From Alphaproteobacteria bacterium (GTDB lineage Bacteria; Pseudomonadota; Alphaproteobacteria; ATCC43930; Allostellaceae), in contig JBFWXJ010000001.1 in the NCBI GenBank assembly GCA_050187535.1, positions 1 to 59,439 on the forward strand: a DNA stretch of 59,439 bases, in the 5' to 3' direction. How positions within the stretch are numbered: the first letter of the stretch is position 1; every line of letters begins with the position of its first letter. A program made the position numbers and the translations under genes. Below are positions 3-11,193 of this stretch, piece by piece. The notes under the pieces are model-generated. The model was not told the DNA's origin. It saw only the letters and a program-made list of their open reading frames with translations, and did not search any database.

Positions 3-320
3 CACCGGGCGAACCCGATGCTGCGCATGTGCTTCGCGAACGTCGTCGCGGTGAAGGACGACGCCGAGAACGAGAAGCTGACCAAGGCGCGCTCCCGGGG
101 CCGCATCGACGGTGCCGTTGCTGCCGCGATGGCGATCGGTCGCGCCATGGCGTCGGACGCCAAGCCATCGATCTACGATCGCCCCGAGTTCTGGACGAAG
201 CCCGAGGCGCCGGCCGTAGAGGACGAGGCAACCATTCTGCGCGATCCCCGGCATCCGCGCTGGCAGGAGATGCGGGAGCGATACGAGCGGCGCCTGGCGC
301 TCATGGACGAGGACTACTGA
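3..320 (+). CDS. Phage terminase large subunit, C-terminal part (5' truncated by window edge)
   Basis: HRANPMLRMCFANVVAVKDDAENEKLTKARSRGRIDGAVAAAMAIGRA matches the terminal 'NPxLxW..N..D..N.K..K.KS..RIDG.VA..MA..RA' motif of HK97-type TerL; directly precedes the portal gene. Confidence 0.88.
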   Translation, partial: HRANPMLRMCFANVVAVKDDAENEKLTKARSRGRIDGAVAAAMAIGRAMASDAKPSIYDRPEFWTKPEAPAVEDEATILRDPRHPRWQEMRERYERRLALMDEDY

Positions 321-321
321 G

Positions 322-1539
322 ATGGGATTGTTGGCGCGAATCTTCGGCCTGGGCGAGACGGTGCGCACGCCGGATCGGCGCGGCGTCTCCGTGCTGGTCG
401 GGAGCGACGCCGGGGTCTATCTGACCGAGGACGTCCTCATGGGCGAGAACACGGCGATGGCCGCGGCCTCGCTCATCGCCCGCTCGACCGCGATGCTGCC
501 GGCTGACGTGCTGGTGGCGAAGTCGAGCGATCCCCGGGACGGCAACGTCGAGCTGCGGGACCACCAGGTCGCGCGGCTGATGGCGCGCGAGGCCAGCCCG
601 GACATGACGGCGATGGCGTTTCGCGAGGGAATGCAGTTGACGGCCTGCCTGCGCGGGAACGCATACGCCGAGATCGAGCGCGACGCGGTGGGGCGGCCCT
701 ATGCGTTGTGGCCGATCCATACCGACCGCGTCGAAGTGATCCGCGACGAACAGGGCCGCGTCGCCTACCTCGTCCAGAACGGCGGCAGGGGGGCGAGCAT
801 CATCCTCGCGCAGGACATGCTGCATCTCATGGGGCCGTCGATCGACGGCGGGCTGACGGGCCTCTCGCCCTTGTCCTACGCTCGCCACACCATCGGCCTC
901 GCCGTGGCGCAGGAGCGTTTCGCCGCCAGCTTCATCAGGAATCAGGCGGCGCCGAGCGGCGTCATCAAGCTCAAACACACGCTCAACAGCCCCGAGGCCA
1001 TGGATCGGATGCGCGAGGAAGTCGAGAAGCGGTTGACCGGCCCGCGCCGCGCCGGCCGCGTCGCGATCCTCGACAACGAGGCCGACTGGCAGCAGGTCGG
1101 TCTTACCCTGGTCGACGCCGAGTTCCTGGCGCAACGCCGCTACAGCGCGGAACAGGTTGCCGCCATCTTCGGCGTCCCGCCCCAGCTTCTCGGCGACAGC
1201 ACGCGCCAGACCTTCGCGAACTTCGCCGAGGCCGGCTTGAACTTCCTCGCCTACGGCCTGCAACCCTGGGTGACGCGCTGGGAACAGGAAGTGAATCGGA
1301 AGCTGCTGACCGAGGACACCCGGCTTCGGAAACGGCCCTTCCTGCGCATCAATACGTCGGCCGTCGTGCGCTCCGACATCGAGAAGCGGACGGCCGCCTA
1401 TGCCCTCGGGCGGCAGTGGGGATGGCTCAGCGTCAACGACGTCCGCCGCCTCGAGGATATGGAGCCGATCGGCGCCGAGGGTGACGTCTACATCACGCCC
1501 GGCCCTGTGCCCGCGGCGCCGGGGAGGGGAACACGATGA
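322..1539 (+). CDS. HK97-family phage portal protein
   Basis: 405 aa; LRGNAYAEIER, GLSPL, FIRNQAAPSGVI, DAEFLAQRRYS, IFGVPPQLLG and GWLSVNDVRRLEDMEPI are typical HK97 portal motifs. Confidence 0.95.
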   Translation: MGLLARIFGLGETVRTPDRRGVSVLVGSDAGVYLTEDVLMGENTAMAAASLIARSTAMLPADVLVAKSSDPRDGNVELRDHQVARLMAREASPDMTAMAFREGMQLTACLRGNAYAEIERDAVGRPYALWPIHTDRVEVIRDEQGRVAYLVQNGGRGASIILAQDMLHLMGPSIDGGLTGLSPLSYARHTIGLAVAQERFAASFIRNQAAPSGVIKLKHTLNSPEAMDRMREEVEKRLTGPRRAGRVAILDNEADWQQVGLTLVDAEFLAQRRYSAEQVAAIFGVPPQLLGDSTRQTFANFAEAGLNFLAYGLQPWVTRWEQEVNRKLLTEDTRLRKRPFLRINTSAVVRSDIEKRTAAYALGRQWGWLSVNDVRRLEDMEPIGAEGDVYITPGPVPAAPGRGTR

Positions 1540-2354
1540 CCGACCGACATCCGCACCGCACGGGTGCAACCCGCGCAATCGCGGGGATGCGCCTATGCTT
1601 GGCCGAGAAGGTCTTTGCCGAGCAGCGCGTCCACATCTTCGGCGACCTCGGCGACGAGGTGAAGGGGCGAGACGTCGCCGCCGCCATCGCCCGCGTCCCG
1701 GCCCGCGACCCGATCGGCGTCATCATCGACAGCGCCGGCGGCGACGTCTCCGATATGCGGGAGATCATCGCCGCCATGGACGCCCGCCGAGCGCCAGTCA
1801 TCACATTCGCGGTCGGCCGGGCAAACTCGGCTGCGGCCATCATTCTGGCGTCCGGGACGAAGCGGTACGCCAACGACGATGCCGAAATCATGGTGCATCA
1901 GGCGGCGGTGCAGGACATCGGCCAGAGACGGGCAACGGCGGACGTGCTGCGCACCATGTCCCGCACTCTCGACGGAACCGACGAGTGGATCGCGGCGCGC
2001 ATCGCCCGCGTCACGGGCAAGACGAAGGCGGAGGCCATGCGGATGCTGGAGCGCGAGACCTACCTGACGGCTGCATCGGCGAAGGCCATGGGCCTCGTCA
2101 CCCACATCGTTGAGCGGAAGCGCGAGGCGTCGCCGCCGGCCCCGCAGCCGCGCGCCGGCCTCGTCAACCCGTCCCGGGCGGCATACCGGGCGATGGTCAT
2201 GCAGCGGCTCGACGGCCGCATGATCGGGATGCCGACCGCGGTGTTCCATCAGATGGTGGAACGCGAAGTCGATCGGATGGTCGCGGGCGAGGGGCCGACG
2301 CCGATCGGCCGGCCCCACCAGATGATGCCGAGGTATCGCGGCGCCATCGTCTGA
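1536..2354 (+). CDS. ClpP-like phage head maturation protease
   Basis: IDSAGGDV, ANSAAAII (catalytic Ser), IMVH (His), ETYLTAASAKAMGLVT; ATGA overlap with the portal gene. Confidence 0.85.
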   Translation: MTDRHPHRTGATRAIAGMRLCLAEKVFAEQRVHIFGDLGDEVKGRDVAAAIARVPARDPIGVIIDSAGGDVSDMREIIAAMDARRAPVITFAVGRANSAAAIILASGTKRYANDDAEIMVHQAAVQDIGQRRATADVLRTMSRTLDGTDEWIAARIARVTGKTKAEAMRMLERETYLTAASAKAMGLVTHIVERKREASPPAPQPRAGLVNPSRAAYRAMVMQRLDGRMIGMPTAVFHQMVEREVDRMVAGEGPTPIGRPHQMMPRYRGAIV

Positions 2355-2412
2355 TGACGGCCTAGAACTACCACCAGCAGCGCCGGACGGCGCCGCATCT
2401 CAGGAGAAAGAA

Positions 2413-3000
2413 ATGTTCGCTGCAACGCACCTCTGCGGCTTCGGGGCGGGCGGCAATGATGCCGTGCAACCGCTCTGGAACGCGGCCGACAAAGACAGCG
2501 ACATCAACCTCAGCGACGACGACCGCACCGCTACTGCGGTGGGAACCGGCGGCGTTCGTTCCGTGCTCGCGATAACCGGCAAGCGGTATTTCGAGTTCGT
2601 GTCGGGGCTCAACAGTTCCAGCAACGGCCGCTTCGGCGTCGCCAACGGCAGTTACGACGTGACCACGGCGCCGGGGGCCGGCTCCAACGAATGGGTGATC
2701 CAGGGTGACGGCCAGAAGCTGACGAGCGGCAGCGCATCCGGCTACGGCTCGGCGCTCGCCAACGGCACGACCGGAATGCTCGCGGTCGATCCATCGTCGG
2801 GGAAGATCTGGGTCGGCGCCGCCGGGTCCTGGTTCAACTCGGGCGATCCCGCGGCAGGGACGGGCGAGATGTTCTCGACCCTGACCGGCACGCTCTATCT
2901 CGTGATGGGGAGGCCGACCGGCTCCAATCGGTCGATCACGCTGCGCCTTGTCGCCGACTACACATACTCGCCCCCGACCGGCTTCGTGGCTGGCGGGTGA
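2413..3000 (+). CDS. SPRY/B30.2-like (concanavalin-type beta-sandwich) phage protein
   Basis: AGGAGA RBS; WNAADKDSDINLSDDDRTAT...VRS...GKRYFEF...G.A.D...GKIW pattern of SPRY domains; Gly/Ser/Thr-rich. Confidence 0.65.
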   Translation: MFAATHLCGFGAGGNDAVQPLWNAADKDSDINLSDDDRTATAVGTGGVRSVLAITGKRYFEFVSGLNSSSNGRFGVANGSYDVTTAPGAGSNEWVIQGDGQKLTSGSASGYGSALANGTTGMLAVDPSSGKIWVGAAGSWFNSGDPAAGTGEMFSTLTGTLYLVMGRPTGSNRSITLRLVADYTYSPPTGFVAGG

Positions 3001-3047
3001 ACTTCGCAGCGCCGTGACGGCGCCGCATTCCCTTGAGGGAGGCCGAG

Positions 3048-5174
3048 ATGGCCGCAGCAGCAGAAACTCGAGTTGTTCGGATCGTCGTAGACGGAGCACC
3101 GGCTCGGGATGGCGCCAACGTCGTCCGGCGCAGCCTTGGCGACATGGACTCCGCCGCCGCCCGGAACGAAGCCAGCATCGGCCGCGTCCGCACCGCGCTC
3201 GGCGACCTCCGCGGCGCGATGGCACGCATGGACGACGGCAACGCCGTGGCGGCACTGCGGCGGATCACGACCGAACTGGACGCGATGCGGACCTCGCTCG
3301 GCGCCAGCGCCGCGGCGCACGAGAAGATGGCCGGCAGCCTCTCGGCGCTGGCAGGTGTCGTGCGGATGCTCGCACCGCTGCTCAGCGGCCTCTTCGCCGG
3401 TGTGAGCGCGGGGGCGCTGGTGACTTCGATCATCGAGGCCGGCGACGCCGTGACCCGTCTGGAAGGGCGGTTTCGGGCATTGACCGGTTCCGGCATGGCG
3501 GCGAAGGAGGCGGTGCAGCAGACATTCGCGATCGCCAGCCGCACGGGCGCCGCGTTCGATGAGGTGGGGCAATCGTTGAGCCGCTTCACCATCGCCAGCC
3601 AGGCCGTCGGCGCCACGCGGGCGGAGGCGGCGCGCCTCGTCGAGACGGTGATGAAGCTGGGCACGATCGGCGGCAGCACGACGCAGGAACTCGCCGCCGG
3701 TGCGCTCCAGCTCGGGCAGGCGTTGTCGAGCGGCCGGCTGCAGGGCGACGAACTGCGGTCGATCCTCGAAAACATGCCGCTCGTCGCCAAGGCGATCGCC
3801 GACCAGCTCGGCGTATCGGTCGGCAAGTTGAAGGAAATGGGCAGCGCGGGTGAGTTGACCGCGGAGAAGGTGTTCGGCGCCTTGCTGGCGCAGGGGAAGA
3901 AGACCGACGAGATGTTCGCCGCGATGCCGCTGACGGTGTCGCGCGCGGCGGGCGAGGCCAAGGTGGCGTGGATGCAGTTCGCCGCCGCGATCGACGAGTC
4001 CCTCGGCCTCAGCCAGCGGCTCGCCGCCTCGCTCCAGGCCATCGCCGGCCTGCTGCGAAACCTCACCCCGGCGACGACCGCAGCCTCGATCGCGTCGCTG
4101 ACCGAGAAGCGCGCCGAGATCGAAGCCGGATTGCGGACGAGGGAGTTGGACGCGCTGCGGGCCGAACTGGCCGAGATGAGGCGGAACCCCGAGGCGTACA
4201 CGGCCGAGATCGCCAGCCGCGAGAAGCTGCTGAAATCCCGCGAAGCCGCGGTGGATGCCATCAATCGGGAACTCGAAGCCCTTCGAGAACAGCAGCGTCT
4301 CCAGCAGCAGGCCACGGCTTGGAATCAGACGGCGGAGCAGGCGGCGGCGGCTCAGGCGAAGGCGAACCTTGCCGCGGCCGAGGCGGCGAAGAAGCACGGC
4401 GAAGGGATGGCATTCCTGAATGACCATTTGAAGGACCAGGGCGCGCTTCAGAAGCGAAACGAGACGATCAGCAAAGCGACGCAGCTTTTCAATGCGGACG
4501 TCATCACGCAGCAGCAGTTCATCGACGTCCTGAAGGAAGCCGAGAAAACCTACGTCGCCGACATCAAGAAGACCGAGGAACGGATAAAGAAGAAAAAAGA
4601 GGAAAAGACCACCTGGGCCGAGCTGAATGAATCTGTGCGCGAAGCCACGGCGGTTGCGCTGGAGCATGAACGCCGTCTCGCCGCCGGGTCGAAGGAATAC
4701 CTCGCCATCGCGAAGGCCGACGACGATCTGGCCGACAGCCTCACCAAGCGGTTCATCCCGGCATCGCAGAAGGCGTCCGCCGAGATCGCCACCTACGACC
4801 GGCTCCTGCAGTCGGGCCGGATCACCCAGGACACCTATGCCGCGGCCGTGGCCGAGACCAACGAGCAACTGGAGCGATCCGACCCGGCGTTCAAGGCCGC
4901 GGAGAAGGCAGCCGAACGCTACGAGGACGTGATGGCCGAGCCCTTCAAGGAGGCGGCGCGGTCGATGCAGAACACGTTCGCCGACACGTTCGAGAAGATC
5001 TTCTCCGGCGGCATCAAGTCGTTCGGCGACTTCGGCGACAGCGTCTTGACCATCATCAAGCGGATGGCGGCACAGATCGCCGCACTGCTCGTCTTCCCGC
5101 CGCCCCCGGGCGCCACGTTCGGCGTCGTCGCCGGCATCGACCCCTCAGACCTCGAGGCCGAGGAGGCCGCCTGA
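3048..5174 (+). CDS. Phage tail tape measure protein (possibly C-terminally truncated)
   Basis: GAGGGAGG RBS; tape-measure motif QLGQALSSGRLQGDELRSILENMPLVAKAIADQLGV...GELTAE; long Ala/Glu/Lys coiled coil. Confidence 0.9.
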   Translation: MAAAAETRVVRIVVDGAPARDGANVVRRSLGDMDSAAARNEASIGRVRTALGDLRGAMARMDDGNAVAALRRITTELDAMRTSLGASAAAHEKMAGSLSALAGVVRMLAPLLSGLFAGVSAGALVTSIIEAGDAVTRLEGRFRALTGSGMAAKEAVQQTFAIASRTGAAFDEVGQSLSRFTIASQAVGATRAEAARLVETVMKLGTIGGSTTQELAAGALQLGQALSSGRLQGDELRSILENMPLVAKAIADQLGVSVGKLKEMGSAGELTAEKVFGALLAQGKKTDEMFAAMPLTVSRAAGEAKVAWMQFAAAIDESLGLSQRLAASLQAIAGLLRNLTPATTAASIASLTEKRAEIEAGLRTRELDALRAELAEMRRNPEAYTAEIASREKLLKSREAAVDAINRELEALREQQRLQQQATAWNQTAEQAAAAQAKANLAAAEAAKKHGEGMAFLNDHLKDQGALQKRNETISKATQLFNADVITQQQFIDVLKEAEKTYVADIKKTEERIKKKKEEKTTWAELNESVREATAVALEHERRLAAGSKEYLAIAKADDDLADSLTKRFIPASQKASAEIATYDRLLQSGRITQDTYAAAVAETNEQLERSDPAFKAAEKAAERYEDVMAEPFKEAARSMQNTFADTFEKIFSGGIKSFGDFGDSVLTIIKRMAAQIAALLVFPPPPGATFGVVAGIDPSDLEAEEAA

Positions 5175-5175
5175 C

Positions 5176-5862
5176 ATGAGTATCATCATCGCCTGCGCGA
5201 ACCAGCGCGAGGCCGTCCTGGCGGTCGACACGCTGGGCTATACGGTCGACGATCCGGGGCGGAAGTTCAATACGAGCAAGAGCTTCACGCTGTCGCATCT
5301 GGGCGCCGTCTATGGCGCTTCATGCTCGGCCGTCTTCGCGCTGCGCTTCGGGCACGAGATCGTCGAGCGTGGCATCGGCAGCTTCGATGAACTGGTCGGC
5401 CGCCTCGTCGACATCGTCGATGCCGCCTATGGCTTCGGCGCCGACATCCTGGCCGGCATGGGTGACAACGCCGCTGCCCATCTGGCCGTGGTCGGCTGGT
5501 CGGCCGCGCGCAACCGCCCGCTGCTGCTGGTGGCGAGCAATGTCGACGAGGCGGCGACCATCGGCAGCTTCAGGGTGCGGGAGATGAACGACCAGATCGT
5601 CGCCATTCCGACGCCGCAGGGAACGATCGGCCCCGCCGGGTCGCGGAAGAAGGTCGACCCCGACGATGCCCTCGTCGCCATCGCCGAGGCGCAGCGGTCG
5701 ATGATCCGCAACATCTACGGCGAGGGCGGTCATATGGGCGGCCGGCTCATCCGGCACCGGGTCACCCGCCACGAGATGACGACGAAGGTCATTCACGAGT
5801 GGAGGGGCGACGTTCCCGAGCGCGGCGCCGTGCCCTCCGCCCTCATCGCAAAGGCCGCCTGA
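5176..5862 (+). CDS. Hypothetical protein with proteasome-beta/HslV-like (Ntn-hydrolase) N-terminus
   Basis: 228 aa; MSIIIAC....AVLAVDT...SK gives Ser1/Asp17/Lys34 after Met removal; coupled to the tape-measure stop with an AGGAGG RBS. Confidence 0.55.
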   Translation: MSIIIACANQREAVLAVDTLGYTVDDPGRKFNTSKSFTLSHLGAVYGASCSAVFALRFGHEIVERGIGSFDELVGRLVDIVDAAYGFGADILAGMGDNAAAHLAVVGWSAARNRPLLLVASNVDEAATIGSFRVREMNDQIVAIPTPQGTIGPAGSRKKVDPDDALVAIAEAQRSMIRNIYGEGGHMGGRLIRHRVTRHEMTTKVIHEWRGDVPERGAVPSALIAKAA

Positions 5863-5885
5863 CCGGCCCGAAGCAGGAGATCGAG

Positions 5886-6101
5886 ATGGCCGACGAGACG
5901 CAGCCCGAGATCGAGATGGCGAAGCTGGCGGCCCGGGTCCGCGAGCTGGAGTCCGCAATGGTCGATGCCGGCAAGGCGATGACGATCGCCGCTAGGGGCA
6001 TCTCGGAGATGGTGGCGCGGCACACCGCGTTGGCGAAGCGCGTGGACGTGCTGGAACGTCGCGGCGGGCTTCGCGTCATTCAGAAGGATTCGGCAGCATG
6101 A
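5886..6101 (+). CDS. Small coiled-coil phage hypothetical protein
   Basis: AGGAG RBS before ATG 5886; MADETQPEIEMAKLAARVRELE...; ATGA overlap with the next ORF. Confidence 0.6.
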   Translation: MADETQPEIEMAKLAARVRELESAMVDAGKAMTIAARGISEMVARHTALAKRVDVLERRGGLRVIQKDSAA

Positions 6102-6361
6102 CTGAGAACACCGAGGTTGCCACGACCATCGAGATCGCCTTGCGGGCCAAGGACGGCAGCGTCAACGTGATGCCGCTGCCCGAATACCTGGCCGGCATCG
6201 AGACCCGCCTCGCCGCGCTGGAGGACGCGCTACCGCGGATGGCGGCTGCGGTGCAGCGGGCCGCGGCCAAGATCGGCAAGGACATCGAGGCAGTCGAGGG
6301 TGCGACCGCATTCGCCAACCGGGCGGCACGGCGGGCTGCGGGCCGCACGGGTCGGCGGTAG
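6098..6361 (+). CDS. Small phage hypothetical protein
   Basis: 87 aa, translationally coupled to the previous ORF, GC3-rich codons. Confidence 0.55.
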   Translation: MTENTEVATTIEIALRAKDGSVNVMPLPEYLAGIETRLAALEDALPRMAAAVQRAAAKIGKDIEAVEGATAFANRAARRAAGRTGRR

Positions 6362-6488
6362 CTACGGAGCTTGGTTCGGTTCGGCCGCCTGACCGGCCGT
6401 GGCCGATGGCGGGCCGCTAGGCTCTTCCGGCTCCCGAACAGCCGGGACGCCGTGGAGGGCTTCTGCGGGGCGCCTGCGGGCCGCACGA

Positions 6489-6772
6489 TGCGACCACGTC
6501 AGATTTTCCCGGCGCCGGGAAAATTGGTGCGCAGGTGCGGGGAGCTGCTGAAGCAGTTCGACGCGAGGCCGCAGAACGCCTCGAAACAAAAGGACGACAA
6601 CGGCCATTTGATTCCGTCGCGCTACGGCGTTGGCGCCGACGCCGGCATGTCCGAGCGTCAGGTCAAGACCGCCGTCCGCGTCGCCAACGTCCCGACCGAG
6701 ACGTTCGATTTTTCTCGCCGGCGCGAAAATTGGTGCGACCAGCTCAAATTTTCGCGGCGCCGCGAAAATTGG
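6489..6772. repeat. Three related ~39-bp units with palindromic cores (ATTTTC-N10-GAAAATTGG)
   Basis: 6503-6524 ATTTTCCCGGCGCCGGGAAAAT (perfect 22-bp palindrome); 6708-6730 ATTTTTCTCGCCGGCGCGAAAAT (near-perfect); 6747-6770 AATTTTCGCGGCGCCGCGAAAATT (perfect 24 bp). Units 1 and 3 share the upstream linker TGCGACCAnnTCA. Confidence 0.9.
6527..6709 (+). pseudogene. Start-less fragment of a phage protein with an HTH-like segment
   Basis: VRRCGELLKQFD...AGMSERQVKTAVRVANVPTETFD resembles the 'RRxGELL...AGLSERQxxxAxRVA' phage family; no own start or RBS; bracketed by palindromic units. Confidence 0.5.
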
Positions 6773-6793
6773 ACTTTCCCAGCCACCCACTGC

Positions 6794-7046
6794 GCGTCGC
6801 TCGGAACTGACCGAGATGGAGCGGGCACGGGCGCTGGCGCGGCGCAAGGAAATCTACGAGATCAGGCATCCGGAGACGCGACAGCATGTCGCCGGTGCCG
6901 CGGCGAAGCATGGGCGTGCAAACGACAAAATGTCGTTTGCAGCCGAGACGGCGAAGAAGACGGGTCGGGACGAAAGCTCGGTACGCCGCTCCGTTCGCAT
7001 CGGCGAGCGCCTATCGCCGGAAGCGGAAGAGGCGGCGAAGGCCTGA
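6794..7046 (+). pseudogene. Fragment of a ParB-like phage protein (HTH region only)
   Basis: RRSELTEMERARALARRKEIYEIRHPET...FAAETAKKTGRDESSVRRSVRIGERL matches the region following the ParB N-domain; N-domain and start codon absent. Confidence 0.65.
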
Positions 7047-7067
7047 AAGGTCGAGCGGCCAATTGGG

Positions 7068-7997
7068 TCAGGGTCCTTGGTACGGAACATCCGACAGTCG
7101 GACCCGCTGAAATACTTCGCTAGGATAGCCATTGGATCGCAGCAAATCACCCACGCTGACTTGCGAAATTTCCTTGTGACGAGACGGACCAATCCACGCC
7201 TCGACAATTGGTATTCGTTCGTCCCTGATCATCGACAATGGAACGTATCTGGATATAAATGTTCTTGTGGGACGAAACTCTAATCTACCCTCGTCCTCTC
7301 GCCTGAGTTCGTAGAGAAGGCGCCATTCAGATTCATCGCGAAACGATGGATGCTTTATGACCGGCGCGAAATAAGTAATGTGTTGCCGCCAGTTGTCGAT
7401 GAACACCTGAAACCAAGTGTCACGATCGATGCCGGGCCTCCTGTCTAGACCCTCTCGAAACTTGTTAATTGTAGCGTGTGCGACGTGAGTTGCGAGGCGC
7501 ATATGCATGTCGTGATCGTAGTTGACTCGTGCCATATAGGTCTTCTTGCCGAACAACTTAGCATTTAGAATTTGTCCATCTATCACGATCGCGTACCCGT
7601 TCTCTCCTCCACCATATCCACGCCACTGATTTAAGTCGTCTTCTCGCTCCGAGAGGCATGCGACGAACCAATGGCTCGTCCTTGCCGAATCTTCGGACAG
7701 GAGGTCCAGCATTCTTGCTGAAACGTACCCAGCAACTGGGTCCGAATCCCGAAATGAAATATCAGTAAATGCAAGCTTCAATAGTGAATACGAATAGCGA
7801 AGCTCGGAAGCATCGTTCAGACAAGAGATCTGAGTCGCCCACAACGTCTTCGTTGAGACGATACCAATAAGGCCGCGACCATCTGTATAGTGCCAAAGTC
7901 TCTTCGGGGGAGATGATTGTAAGCCGAAATCCGCAAGCGTCTCCATGACGAAGCGACCATACCCGCCATGCTCATCGGTGGTGACGTCAACAGACAT
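7068..7997 (-). CDS. DUF2971-like protein (putative defence-associated cargo)
   Basis: LWHYT...ATQISCLNDASELRY, CLSEREDDLNQWRGYG, IKHPSFRDESEWRL, IGP motifs; visibly more AT-rich than flanks. Confidence 0.8.
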   Translation of the reverse strand: MSVDVTTDEHGGYGRFVMETLADFGLQSSPPKRLWHYTDGRGLIGIVSTKTLWATQISCLNDASELRYSYSLLKLAFTDISFRDSDPVAGYVSARMLDLLSEDSARTSHWFVACLSEREDDLNQWRGYGGGENGYAIVIDGQILNAKLFGKKTYMARVNYDHDMHMRLATHVAHATINKFREGLDRRPGIDRDTWFQVFIDNWRQHITYFAPVIKHPSFRDESEWRLLYELRREDEGRLEFRPTRTFISRYVPLSMIRDERIPIVEAWIGPSRHKEISQVSVGDLLRSNGYPSEVFQRVRLSDVPYQGP

Positions 7998-8030
7998 AGC
8001 AGCCTCGCTCTGTGACAGCGCGGGTAGGTC

Positions 8031-8255
8031 TCACCTGGATCGTAGCCTCACCCCCGGCCCTCCGCCGTTCTCCGCGATAATCTCGACACCGGCCGCTTCA
8101 AGGGCGGCGCGGAGCGCATCGACGGTACGGGGATAGAGGCTGTCGCCACGCTCAAACCGCGCAACGGTGTCCGGCGAGACCTTCGCCGCAGCAGCTAGGT
8201 CGCGAACGCCCCAGCCGACAGCGGTTCGCGCCATGCGGCACTGAATGGGCAACAT
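8031..8255 (-). CDS. XRE-family HTH transcriptional regulator
   Basis: QCRMARTAVGWGVRDLAAAAKVSPDTVARFERG...ALEAAGVEIIAENGGGPGVRL, a typical alphaproteobacterial phage XRE protein. Confidence 0.92.
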   Translation of the reverse strand: MLPIQCRMARTAVGWGVRDLAAAAKVSPDTVARFERGDSLYPRTVDALRAALEAAGVEIIAENGGGPGVRLRSR

Positions 8256-8327
8256 CAGAACTCCGTTACGAACTTGTTGCGCGCCCTAATGGGTCGGCGC
8301 ATCATAACACGGTTCCGACATCGGAAC
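8255..8327. promoter_or_regulatory. Putative XRE operator sites in the divergent intergenic region
   Basis: TCAGAAC-tcc-GTTACGA (8255-8271), TCATAAC-acg-GTTCCGA (8302-8318) and a further half-site TCGGAAC (8321-8327); consensus half-site TCRKAAC. Confidence 0.6.
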
Positions 8328-8404
8328 GCAGACGGCGGCCGAGCGGTGCGGCTGGTACCCGTCCCGCCCGGCCTGACCACAACCTGAACCTTGGAGTTCT
8401 GGTC

Positions 8405-8662
8405 ATGGCTGCTTCTACGTCTACCACACCGAGGAAGGCGCCTCGCCCCCGCTGGAATGCCTACGAGGCGCGGTTCAAGCTCACCAAGAAAATCGACGCC
8501 GCCGGCAATCTCGCCCGCGCCGGGGGCTGCGATGTCCAGCTTGCCCATGTCCTGGTCGAGCTTGCCGCCGCTGCCCGAGAACTGGCGACGCGGACCCCGC
8601 AGTACGATGTGGAGCGGCTGCGCGCCCTTCTCGACCGTCAGGACGTCGGGGGTGCGGCATGA
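8405..8662 (+). CDS. Phage hypothetical protein
   Basis: GGAG RBS; 85 aa; ends GGAA* with ATGA coupling to the next ORF. Confidence 0.6.
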   Translation: MAASTSTTPRKAPRPRWNAYEARFKLTKKIDAAGNLARAGGCDVQLAHVLVELAAAARELATRTPQYDVERLRALLDRQDVGGAA

Positions 8663-9003
8663 CCCCCGACGCCGAGCTGGTGGCGCTGCTGCCCGAAATC
8701 GAACAGACGTATCGCGCCGAGCTGGCGGCAGCGGCGGCGCTGGAACTGATGCTCGACGGCGACCCCGACGAGCCGGTGTACGACCGGCTCTACGACCTGG
8801 CGCGGGAGCGGTTCGACGCCGTTCTCGCCAAGGCGACCGCGATGACGGCGACGACGCTCGTCGGTATCAGGATCAAGGCGAAGGTCGCGGCGATGATCGC
8901 GGCCCAAATGAGCGACAAGCAGCAGCACCCTGACCTGGACGTGCGCACCATGCGCAACGTCATCACCGACCTGCTGGCGCTGCCCGAGGGGGATGCGCCA
9001 TGA
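8659..9003 (+). CDS. Phage hypothetical protein
   Basis: 114 aa; DAELVAL...ATTLVGIRIKAKVA motif common in alphaproteobacterial prophage early genes; coupled on both sides. Confidence 0.7.
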   Translation: MTPDAELVALLPEIEQTYRAELAAAAALELMLDGDPDEPVYDRLYDLARERFDAVLAKATAMTATTLVGIRIKAKVAAMIAAQMSDKQQHPDLDVRTMRNVITDLLALPEGDAP

Positions 9004-9734
9004 CCCCCGCCGACGCCGTGCTGGCGCAGATCGTGGCTTCCGCGGACGTCATCGGCGCCACGGCGGACGGCCGCGCCTTCCTGCTGGTCGAGGCTCCGGC
9101 CGACCTTATCGACCGCATGGCCGAGTTCGGGGCCGCTCATGAGGACGATGAGGACGACGATCCGCCGGAAGACGGCGACCCCCGCGAGGACGACGACCCC
9201 GATACCTCGGTCGACGACGAAGGCGAGCCGCAGGTGGGCATCGCCCCGCAGTGGCCGCCGGGAAAAGCCCGCCTCGAAGCGGCGATCGCGGCCGGAAAGA
9301 CGGTGCGCGCCGTGGCGACCATGTTCGGTCGCTCGCAGACGGCGGTCTGGCGGTTGGCGAAGCGGCTCGGCGTCCGCTGGCCGAACGAGCGCAAGCCCCG
9401 GGCATCGGCTCCGCCGTCGAGGACGTGGCCGCCGACCGAGGACGAGGTGGCCGAGCTGATCGGGCAGGGCATCGGCGACAACCGCGCGTCGAAGCTCTTC
9501 GGCGTTCACGTCTCGACCTACCGGGCGCTGCGCCGCCGGTACTTCTGCGATGGCGTGGGCAGCAAGGACGACGGGCCGCCGGTCGACCCCGCGGAGTACG
9601 GCTACGTGGGCACGCCGCTGCCCTCGGGCATCACGTTCGATGACAGCCCTCGTGCCGCCGCTGCCGACCGCACCGGCCGGGTGCTGCGCCCGATGACGGT
9701 GCTGGAGCGGGAGTCGTCCATCGCGGCGTGCTGA
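9000..9734 (+). CDS. Phage hypothetical protein with acidic tract and HTH-like segments
   Basis: EDDEDDDPPEDGDPREDDDPD tract; GKTVRAVATMFGRSQTAVWRLAKRLG and GDNRASKLFGVHVSTYRALRRR are HTH-like. Confidence 0.6.
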   Translation: MTPADAVLAQIVASADVIGATADGRAFLLVEAPADLIDRMAEFGAAHEDDEDDDPPEDGDPREDDDPDTSVDDEGEPQVGIAPQWPPGKARLEAAIAAGKTVRAVATMFGRSQTAVWRLAKRLGVRWPNERKPRASAPPSRTWPPTEDEVAELIGQGIGDNRASKLFGVHVSTYRALRRRYFCDGVGSKDDGPPVDPAEYGYVGTPLPSGITFDDSPRAAAADRTGRVLRPMTVLERESSIAAC

Positions 9735-9761
9735 GACAATCGACCGGTCATCGACGCCCGA

Positions 9762-9810
9762 CCGAAAAGACAAACCCCGCCGGTTCGCGCTGGCGGGGTT
9801 TTGTTTTCGG
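9762..9810. terminator. Bidirectional intrinsic terminator
   Basis: AAACCCCGCCGG-loop-CTGGCGGGGTTT stem with A-rich 5' and T-rich 3' flanks, between the convergent phage ORF and tRNA. Confidence 0.8.
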
Positions 9811-9896
9811 CGGGTCCGCTGGGGGTCCGCTATTTTCTCGGAATTTTCGGCTCCGAGGCCGCCACCGTCAAAACCGCCCTGAATTCAGGGGGTTAA

Positions 9897-9972
<76 letters not shown>

Positions 9973-9984
9973 GCCGGGGCGCGG

Positions 9985-10013
9985 CATATAGCAACTCCCA
10001 CCCCCCTTGTCGA
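9985..10013 (-). promoter_or_regulatory. Sigma70-type promoter of tRNA-Lys
   Basis: TCGACA-17 nt-TATATG followed by a GC-rich discriminator just upstream of the tRNA. Confidence 0.6.
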
Positions 10014-10038
10014 TAGCGGCGAACGGTCACTCCGGCGG

Positions 10039-11193
10039 TCATTCAGGGCCGGCCTCGCCGCGGCGGTTGATCTCCATGTCGCGGTGGACGTAGACGCCCA
10101 TCACGAGGCCCATGCCGAACATCACCGTCAGCATGGCGGTGCCGCCGAAGGACACCATCGCCAGCGGCACGCCGACCACCGGCATCAGGCCCATGACCAT
10201 GCCGATGTTGATGAAGACGTAGAGGAAGAGCGTGGTGCTGACGCCGAGCGCCAGGACGCGGCCGAACTGGTTGCGGCTGCGCAGCGCGATCAGGAAGCCG
10301 TAGGCGATGACCAGCGCATAGAGACCGAGCAGCGTCAGCCCGCCCACCATGCCCCATTCCTCGGCCAGCATGGTGAAGATGAAGTCCGTCTGCTTCTCGG
10401 GCAGGAAGTTGAGATGGGCCTGGCTGCCGGCGAGGAAGCCCTTGCCGAAGACGCCGCCGGAGCCGAGCGCGATCTTCGACTGGATGATGTGGTAGCCCGC
10501 GCCCAGGGGATCGGCTTCCGGGTTCAGGAAGGTCAGCACCCGCTTCTTCTGGTAGTCGCGCAGGAACTCCCACGCGATCGGCACGACGGCGGCCACGACG
10601 GCGAGCGCAGCCGCGAACTTCCACAGGCGCACGCCGGCGATGAAGAAGACCGCCGCCCCGCCCGCCATCAGCATGATCGCAGTGCCGAGGTCCGGCTGCT
10701 TCAGCACGAGCGCGGCCGGGGCCAGGACCATGAGCGTCGGCAGGATCAGGAACACCGGCCGGCCGATCTCGTCCGCATCGAGCGTGTTGAAGTAGCGGGC
10801 CAGCGCCAGCACCAGCGAGATCTTCATGATCTCGGAGGGCTGCAGCTGGATGACGCCGAAGTCGATCCAGCGCTGCGCGCCCATGCCGATCTCGCCGCGA
10901 ATCTCGACCGCGACCAGCAGCGCGAAGGCGGCGAGATAGATGACGTAGGCCAGGCGCAGCCAGACGCGCAGATCGACCAGCGCGACCACGATCATGCCCG
11001 CGAGGCCGATGCAGAAGCGCAGGATCTGCTTCTCGGCCCAGGGCTGGAAGCTGCCGCCGGCGGCCGAGTAGAGCATGGCGAAGCCGACGCCCGCGATCGC
11101 CCCCAGCAGCAGCACGAGGCCCCAGTTGACCTGCCAGATGCGGTCGAGGAGCAGCGGCGCCCGCGATCGCGGCGATGCCTCGAAGCCGGTCAT
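10039..11193 (-). CDS. rodA: Rod shape-determining protein RodA (SEDS)
   Basis: MGAQRWI, QPSEIMK, QPDLGT, GYHIIQSKIALGSGG, LPEKQTDFIF; ATGA overlap with mrdA. Confidence 0.97.
   Translation of the reverse strand: MTGFEASPRSRAPLLLDRIWQVNWGLVLLLGAIAGVGFAMLYSAAGGSFQPWAEKQILRFCIGLAGMIVVALVDLRVWLRLAYVIYLAAFALLVAVEIRGEIGMGAQRWIDFGVIQLQPSEIMKISLVLALARYFNTLDADEIGRPVFLILPTLMVLAPAALVLKQPDLGTAIMLMAGGAAVFFIAGVRLWKFAAALAVVAAVVPIAWEFLRDYQKKRVLTFLNPEADPLGAGYHIIQSKIALGSGGVFGKGFLAGSQAHLNFLPEKQTDFIFTMLAEEWGMVGGLTLLGLYALVIAYGFLIALRSRNQFGRVLALGVSTTLFLYVFINIGMVMGLMPVVGVPLAMVSFGGTAMLTVMFGMGLVMGVYVHRDMEINRRGEAGPE

Follow-up and report, generated by a model that had tools for sequence, protein, structure and literature searches.

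The stretch at 6489-7046 of the window (the whole 59,439 nucleotides of DNA analysed here) is a row of five phage-gene scraps, drawn from three gene families and lying in both orientations, and each of the five covers the palindrome of its parent gene. The row sits within a host element of ~18 kb that is PICI-like, located at tRNA-Lys and likely parasitic on other phages. On balance, we lean towards the reading that the array is a selected library, multi-family and variable, that would mimic the binding sites of helper phages.

Phage-gene scraps at 6489-7046

Three 39-nt units lie in the array at about 6488-6527, 6695-6733 and 6734-6772, with spacings of 206 and 39, confirming what the first-pass annotation had described, including the tandem arrangement of the second and third units at 39-bp spacing. 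Across the 6.2 Mb genome the pattern TTTTC-N10-GAAAA occurs three times, every copy inside the array stretch. Among 20,000 Markov surrogates of the region, 2 reached at least three matches to a looser pattern. A single fixed rule finds three palindromes in the 558 bp of the array, versus eight in 200 kb sampled from other contigs. The array was also present with 0 differences in run X2, a second sample from the same study, on two overlapping contigs, which rules out an assembly artefact; run X1 is the possible source.

Unit 1 (about 6488-6527, minus strand) is a 39-bp LmbU-like scrap that reads QFSRRRENLTWSH, contains a perfect 22-bp palindrome at 6503-6524 and is identical to the intact gene L129 at 34/39 positions. 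It is followed by a start-less scrap of phrog_33995 (6527..6709, plus strand; profile positions 72-133 of 224), with an imperfect version of the linker palindrome of that family at 6587-6610. Unit 2 (LmbU-like, about 6695-6733, listed without a strand) has its palindrome at 6710-6729, with one unpaired position (18/20). Unit 3 is a 66-bp LmbU-like scrap (6733..6798, minus strand) that includes the end of the recognition helix (DAQWVAGKVQFSRRRENLSWSH); its palindrome at 6747-6770 is perfect, and over its extended length it matches L104 at 51/66 positions. The 3′ insert is a start-less ParB-like scrap (6792..7046, plus strand; phrog_3264 positions 141-237 of 337) with a palindrome at 6917-6941. 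Three natural LmbU-like alleles are thus adjacent within 290 bp, and six junctions in the window fall outside the palindromes, which stay whole. The start-less nature of both inserts and the ParB type of the second had been recognised beforehand, and the idea that inserts always cover a palindrome-bearing segment was borne out for both. The self-complementarity ascribed to the unit cores holds for units 1 and 3 but is incomplete in unit 2.

Read on the minus strand (FSRRRENLSWSH), all three units are scraps of 39-66 bp from phage LmbU-like genes. The units encode QFSRRRENL[S/T]WSH, which continues in unit 3 to DAQWVAGKV. The 26-aa peptide of unit 3 had NF038070 (LmbU family) as its sole NCBIfam match (profile 66-85 of 171), with an E-value of 0.0068 that is weaker than the whole-protein cut-off, as expected of a scrap; the intact gene L071 matched the same profile at 5e-30. 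Over 39 nt, the best match among 28 intact LmbU-like genes covers 34 positions of unit 1 and 35 of unit 3, whereas the best among 3 DinD-type genes covers 27 and 26. The DinD-type origin suggested in the first-pass annotation was therefore dropped, since those 26-27 of 39 matches fall nearly all within the palindrome and the extended unit 3 matches at only 31/66. The three comparison genes are ones that we take to be DinD-type from their HF..KM motif. The DNA identity between units and LmbU-like genes, together with the homology to NF038070, shows that the 'repeat' is phage coding sequence, and the variable positions of the unit core are third bases in the codons for Ser-Arg-Arg-Arg. The initial picture of a structural repeat spaced by inserts does not describe the array, in which the unit is itself a captured fragment. 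That the region might be one decaying gene with frameshifts has in its favour two long overlapping frames that span it, but the pieces match three families on two strands; the origin from several phage genes proposed at the outset stands, and we give the single-gene account practically no credence.

A scan of viral contigs with the palindrome pattern returned 11 loci, comprising DinD-type genes, chance matches, non-coding copies and one gene, L071, which reads FSRRRENLDWSLH at its palindrome. The DinD-type gene L075 contains an exact copy of the 22-bp palindrome of unit 1, in a different reading frame, and that of unit 3 is present in L076; two unrelated families share one DNA site shape, a likeness for which the scan pattern had selected. 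Similar palindromes lie outside long frames in L068, L070 and L073, and L066 belongs to the same group of loci.

Two other candidates were set aside. A tyrosine-recombinase site (11-6-11) was dropped once the coding origin became clear, and a coherent peptide product was rejected with the LmbU scraps antisense to the other two and, by eye, no evident ribosome-binding site before the long frames. The junction pattern of the unit had one match in viral contigs, which was unrelated, and the middle insert gave two short, chance-level blastn matches to phages. Upstream of the array, an exact 16-nt direct repeat (5853-5868 and 6383-6398) flanks two small ORFs.

Intragenic palindromes of the parent genes and their predicted readers

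Scans for DNA encoding FSRRRENL[S/T]W found 5 genome, 3 viral and 53 metagenome loci; adding L071 and dropping five duplicates left 57 loci, which were sorted by eye from profile extents into 28 intact genes, 27 scraps and 2 contig-end cuts. In the 28 intact LmbU-like genes, 49 of 56 free pairs are complementary, compared with 25.0 +/- 2.9 when permuted (0/20,000). Palindrome-compatible residues flank the invariant Arg in 28 of 31 distinct heptamers versus 8.5 expected, a test on the 64 of 66 database proteins in which the segment was locatable. Since intact parents keep the palindrome, the cores that had been called compensatory are inherited from parent alleles: the pairing is indeed kept, but it is not a property of the array. 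Among 16 intact phrog_33995 genes the linker palindrome scores 4-16, with 15 of the 16 scoring above their own downstream control or equal to it at 5 or more; the score of 4 in the window is among the family's weakest. A palindrome at the matching place was found in four of six ParB-like parents and, by threshold, in neither of the other two. Three phage gene families therefore keep a variable palindrome within their own coding sequence.

A second family-type palindrome ~210-285 bp away in 5 of the 28 intact LmbU-like loci (L096, L099, L116, L118 and L127) suggests duplicated DNA-binding domains. The phrog_33995 gene is directly followed by a phrog_32407 gene in 7 of the 9 loci scanned (L014-L028), forming a conserved two-gene module in phage replication/recombination regions.

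The array's own genome (G000, 93% complete) has no match to NF038070 for an intact LmbU-like gene and no intact phrog_33995 gene, the array scrap being the sole match, while phrog_3264 matches the array scrap and a chromosomal parAB-type gene. As far as this genome extends, the element carries candidate sites without the parent protein, as in SGI1-type mimicry. A search for an LmbU-like match among annotated phages found none.

The LmbU-like domain was modelled with a pLDDT of 96, and its best structural match was the Caulobacter ParB DNA-binding domain in complex with parS (6s6h; Z 9.7, rmsd 2.9, 92 aligned), followed by Spo0J (1vz0; Z 9.2), though for helical domains a Z under about 13 may reflect arrangement only. 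The top 12 fold-search matches comprised 8 ParB-family and 4 Raf1 structures, and a PDB sequence search with the domain gave no match. The LmbU-like family is thus predicted to adopt the fold of the ParB DNA-binding domain, the helix-turn-helix plus helical bundle of ParB/KorB/SopB, and the model suggests a ParB fold for LmbU, the regulator of an antibiotic cluster, and kinship with these phage proteins. The phrog_33995 model reached a best Z of 7.8, to designed helical proteins, with no family standing out, and in Atlas it fell only among unnamed viral clusters (0.97-0.98).

In the available portions of the published work, Streptomyces LmbU binds the palindrome CGCCGGCG, extended to TCGCCGGCGA, via its helix-turn-helix (PMC6510168, PMC10763038). 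This binding motif is the centre of the phage members' intragenic palindrome, and its 10-mer is exact in L092 and L098 and present at 9/10 in unit 2. With 4,139 copies of CGCCGGCG and 308 of the 10-mer in the genome, the motif is common in GC-rich DNA, so that a short match, as in unit 2 alone, proves little, and three additional sites would be of consequence only to a protein that reads all 20-22 bp. The intragenic palindrome was present in none of seven Streptomyces/Pseudonocardia LmbU-family genes (7 of 23 records), and the studied LmbU is therefore no direct precedent for self-binding; on these sequences, the palindrome is a feature of the mobile members of the family.

Residues of the recognition helix covaried with bases of the palindrome. 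Gly at residue -14 went with A at the first free base (6/6 vs 0/27 across 33 genes), and Asp at residue -10 went with G (4/6 vs 0/27, 33 genes). The rule was derived from 28 genes and afterwards held in L150, L153, L157 and unit 3; the exceptions are L152, where Asp occurs with T, the edge-cut L110, which breaks the Gly-A pairing, and the scrap L115, which breaks Asp-G. In the parent tree, 3 of 30 branches were starred and one independent pair was found, too few resolved branches to separate the association from kinship. By range offset, we infer that residue -10 lies near ParB N178, and a few such residues switch specificity in ParB/Noc (available portion of PMC7383237). Collectively, the intragenic palindrome is likely the binding site of its own protein.

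Scrap loci elsewhere and the history of the array

Scraps make up 27 of the 57 distinct public loci with the LmbU-like motif. Further palindromes are concentrated around them, with 52 in 35.5 kb (20/27 loci) versus 7 in 35.1 kb around intact genes (6/28). Pairing is kept in the scraps at 49 of 54 free pairs, 9 of the 27 loci hold two to five family-type palindromes, and none of 29 co-resident pairs is identical. In 24 of 27 scraps, at most 11 codons are kept upstream of the palindrome, and only 3 of 27 reach helix residue -14. The public scan demanded a whole palindrome, so these counts cannot prove that scraps always cover it; in G303, a scrap piece occurs without the palindrome. Several of the records may come from related samples. 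The loci include a lone 40-bp scrap with nearly the boundaries seen in the window (L083, in a Hyphomicrobiales genome, flanked by a primase-helicase module and a tRNA) and a mosaic in an Acidobacteriota genome (L084). When 148 of 166 frames at 18 of the 27 scrap loci were compared with PHROG, roughly half of these loci had scattered genes of mobile elements (excisionase, TerS, integrase, helicase, HicB-like), so that the label 'satellite' may not apply to all scraps.

HicAB-like pairs adjoin scraps in the place that DUF2971 takes in the window, at L033:2940-3520, L034:14800-15200, L083:1980-2300 and L102:1881-2309, labelled by PHROG match for L102 and by eye for the other three. One metagenome contig (L122:1400-2350 and L123:850-2150) holds two large arrays, one of about ten palindromes with a repeated linker between them and the other of five LmbU-like and at least three second-family variants in tandem.

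In the window, an XRE-type HTH gene (8031..8255, minus strand) marks the orthologous locus of related elements. XRE-linked relatives carry different scraps in the same place, with six palindromes in G005, one in G004 and two in G560; G005 has several variants of one family plus another phrog_33995 allele that ends at almost the same codon. A further locus, in G240, has three palindromes, with two ParB-like variants enclosing a phrog_33995 scrap, which is the architecture seen in the window with another family as the 'unit'. G240 came from a phrog_33995 profile search of 401 genomes, alongside four other matches: the window array, a lone scrap, an intact distant gene and a broken piece without a palindrome. 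All four loci were found without any palindrome in the search, and their anatomy is the same as in the window. Among 29 other XRE loci, at least three have scraps within 1.5 kb (eight have a palindrome, of which three were inspected). In G016, a related element, L035:6905-7461 contains three isolated palindromes ~2 kb from the XRE gene, presumably of a Bro-N-like coding type.

The expectation that relatives would show conserved units with variable inserts was borne out in part: the scraps at the locus do differ, but the 39-bp unit was not seen beside the XRE gene of G005, G004 or G560. This bears on whether the array could be a memory of CRISPR type, in which the 39-bp repeat would be conserved and spacers would be acquired by dedicated machinery. 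Three similar units with an insert between two of them, and inserts that vary among related elements, would suit such a memory; however, the unit is phage coding sequence, the inserts (183 and 255 bp) are irregular and overlap the units, whose spacings are themselves uneven, and no cas-like or effector gene turned up in the ORFs scanned from the element, nor is a dedicated acquisition enzyme evident. We regard this account as exceedingly unlikely.

How the LmbU-like units came to stand together can be read in part from their flanks. The three units have in common a right flank that just 1 of 28 intact genes shares, suggesting that a 39-bp piece was duplicated in tandem. Between units 1 and 3, 6 of 39 positions have changed while the family peptide and a perfect palindrome are kept, an outcome reached by random six-substitution trials at a frequency of 4e-5; this argues for replacement by other phage alleles rather than a drifting duplication. 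A contig from run X3 matches 6698-6730 at 31 of 33 positions in the sense orientation, with LmbU-like coding sequence continuing on both sides; runs X3 and X4 hold small shares and are the source of this one 33-nt match only. Unit 2 is likely a hybrid, which we infer to have its left arm from a sense-oriented allele and its right flank as in units 1 and 3, and a crossover inside the palindrome would explain its single mismatch. Short homology is present at the junctions, with 5 nt at 6527 and an ETFD-coding overlap with the phrog_33995 scrap at 6698-6709.

Such traces also suit neutral debris, in which a cargo hot spot by the XRE gene gathers phage DNA, palindromes promote recombination and the scraps sit idle. 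The short sequences shared at the junctions and the resemblance of unit 2 to a crossover within the palindrome are as this account would have them, as are the degraded phrog_33995 palindrome, the failure to find a capsid gene and the lack of scraps within 1.5 kb of most XRE relatives. Idle scraps would not, however, be expected to have six junctions in the window spare the palindromes, to be trimmed so closely upstream in 24 of 27 cases, to retain symmetry with no identical co-resident pair, or to differ as units 1 and 3 do with peptide and perfect palindrome kept. We consider neutral debris rather unlikely, and continue to favour a selected library of binding-site mimics.

A related possibility is that the scraps are a donor pool, silent templates that would recombine into an incoming phage gene and alter its site or specificity. 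Variant libraries of one segment in L123, L119 and G005 and the allele exchange evident in unit 2 agree with this, but the element has no intact target gene, few scraps reach helix residue -14, and no recombinase lies beside the array, the element's integrase being at its far end. This option, raised in the first-pass annotation, found no support, and we hold it to be highly improbable.

The array could instead act through RNA, if transcripts across it were antisense or hairpin RNAs that silence matching phage genes. A DUF2971 cargo gene (7068..7997, minus strand; GC 50% vs 71% for the genome) is convergent on the array, as had been noted; transcription units to either side run towards the array, the scraps consist of phage coding sequence, and their palindromes would form hairpins. 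Yet scraps lie in both orientations in the window and in G005, a mixture that fits DNA sites. A consensus scan found no promoter at the array, terminator-like sites are no commoner than in shuffles, and Rfam over 5000-10100 gave nothing beyond the tRNA. A self-complementary trimmed core would be a poor antisense target, and the helix-base association points to protein-DNA reading. Action through RNA is in our estimation very unlikely. Of the options first offered under an acquired memory or decoy locus, the decoy comes closest to what was found, whereas antisense RNA gained no support.

Proposed role, closest known systems and the host element

If the array is a library of mimics of helper-phage binding sites, each parent protein, supplied in trans by a helper or rival phage, would as a dimer recognise the palindrome within its own gene, and the recognition helix would set an allele-specific site preference. 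The element would have taken up palindrome segments by short-homology recombination, of which the anatomy is seen directly and the history is conjectural, and for the LmbU-like units a 39-bp piece would have been duplicated in tandem, with alleles replaced afterwards. On entry or induction of a phage whose allele matches, the phage protein would dock on the element, and the docked element might be treated as phage 'self' DNA; as the element replicates, it could deprive the phage of this protein, in the way that SGI1 parS copies act on IncC ParB. The benefit may be hijack, titration or sensing near the XRE gene.

SGI1 offers the nearest likeness, a parasitic element that carries a site of ParB type without the protein, with binding in our case predicted. 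In the portion of that report available, two parS copies bind the helper IncC ParB, stabilise SGI1 and, as copy number rises, destabilise the helper (PMC10954446). SGI1, however, has two fixed copies of one site from a true partition system, whereas the array sites are clipped from the coding sequences of three families with coding flanks attached, and their alleles differ within one array and wholly between sister elements. By homology, the units correspond to what follows the helix-turn-helix in Streptomyces LmbU (NF038070). Actinomycete members of that family bind promoters, as far as the available text of PMC6510168 and PMC10763038 goes, while phage members have the site in their own gene and frequently occur as DNA methyltransferase fusions. 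With ParB-parS and Noc-NBS the LmbU-like proteins share the same predicted DNA-binding fold and a palindromic site (PMC7383237, in part), but they lacked the N-terminal ParB CTPase domain in the scans run, and their site encodes part of the protein itself. In the accessible part of a recent preprint, orphan vrRNAs of satellites redirect phage VIPR, in a setting of RNA guides and host REP decoys (bioRxiv 10.64898/2026.10.15.759431); the proposed likeness is helper-derived non-coding satellite DNA diverting a DNA-targeting protein of the helper, and the difference is that the window element has DNA sites rather than the RNA guides described there.

More broadly, it is possible, though we put it forward tentatively, that many phage ParB-fold proteins read self-tags in their own genes, the helix and the tag having diversified jointly into types of specificity, and that satellites across phyla collect these tags from past helpers as a protein-free, updatable and heritable DNA memory without RNA guides, such that helper proteins, often with a methyltransferase, would mark, dock on or drain to the satellite. 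Were this true, satellites would adapt to many helpers through collected binding sites instead of genes, and phage early proteins now labelled 'hypothetical', ParB-like or methyltransferase-fused would gain a testable target in their own-gene palindrome. The LmbU-like family is the cleanest handle, with a short domain, a published motif for a bacterial member and a two-residue candidate code. We found no literature describing such arrays or joining LmbU, ParB and phage, in a search that covered few subscription papers and no supplements. New here are the LmbU-like parent, its predicted ParB fold, the match to the published motif, the candidate helix code and the controlled counts.

The element that hosts the array has in the window a packaging module (18..5174, plus strand) of the TerL C-terminal end, portal, Clp-type head protease, an SPRY-like gene labelled by eye and tape measure. 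At the other side lie tRNA-Lys(CTT) (9897-9972) and a 50-bp att core (9896-9945) at the end of that tRNA gene (together 9896..9972, minus strand). The att core is exactly repeated at G000:C8:8146-8195, and the first 8.1 kb of contig C8 encode an integrase, an AlpA/excisionase-like protein, an O-like initiator, HNH, TerS and the first part of TerL (with matches to phrog_1, phrog_66 and phrog_391). The TerL halves abut in profile coordinates across C8 and C1, which suggests one ~18-kb element; with this probable join, the att repeats, int, an alpA-like gene and replication genes are those of a PICI. The gene set of int, alpA-like, rep, HNH, TerS, TerL, portal and protease in about 18 kb resembles that of cf-PICIs (bioRxiv 10.1101/2022.09.08.507074, in the part available), from which the element differs in that a major capsid gene was not found and a tape measure gene is present. 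PF05065 was found nowhere in G000 (the control was positive in 4/14 genomes), although a divergent capsid is possible, and no capsid PHROG matched among the scanned element ORFs; we therefore call the element PICI-like rather than a demonstrated cf-PICI, and it may be decaying.

In the part of the element on C8 (L198, G000:C8:1-8146), a SLOG-family gene lies between TerS and TerL. A non-coding leader at 8330-8400, located between the XRE gene and the rightward operon, is strongly conserved in G005 and G004 and has no Rfam match. The genome also contains a second, shorter element remnant near another tRNA (L199, G000:C108:1200-5150), with a protease segment that is 81% identical, an XRE piece and a terminal HTH gene.
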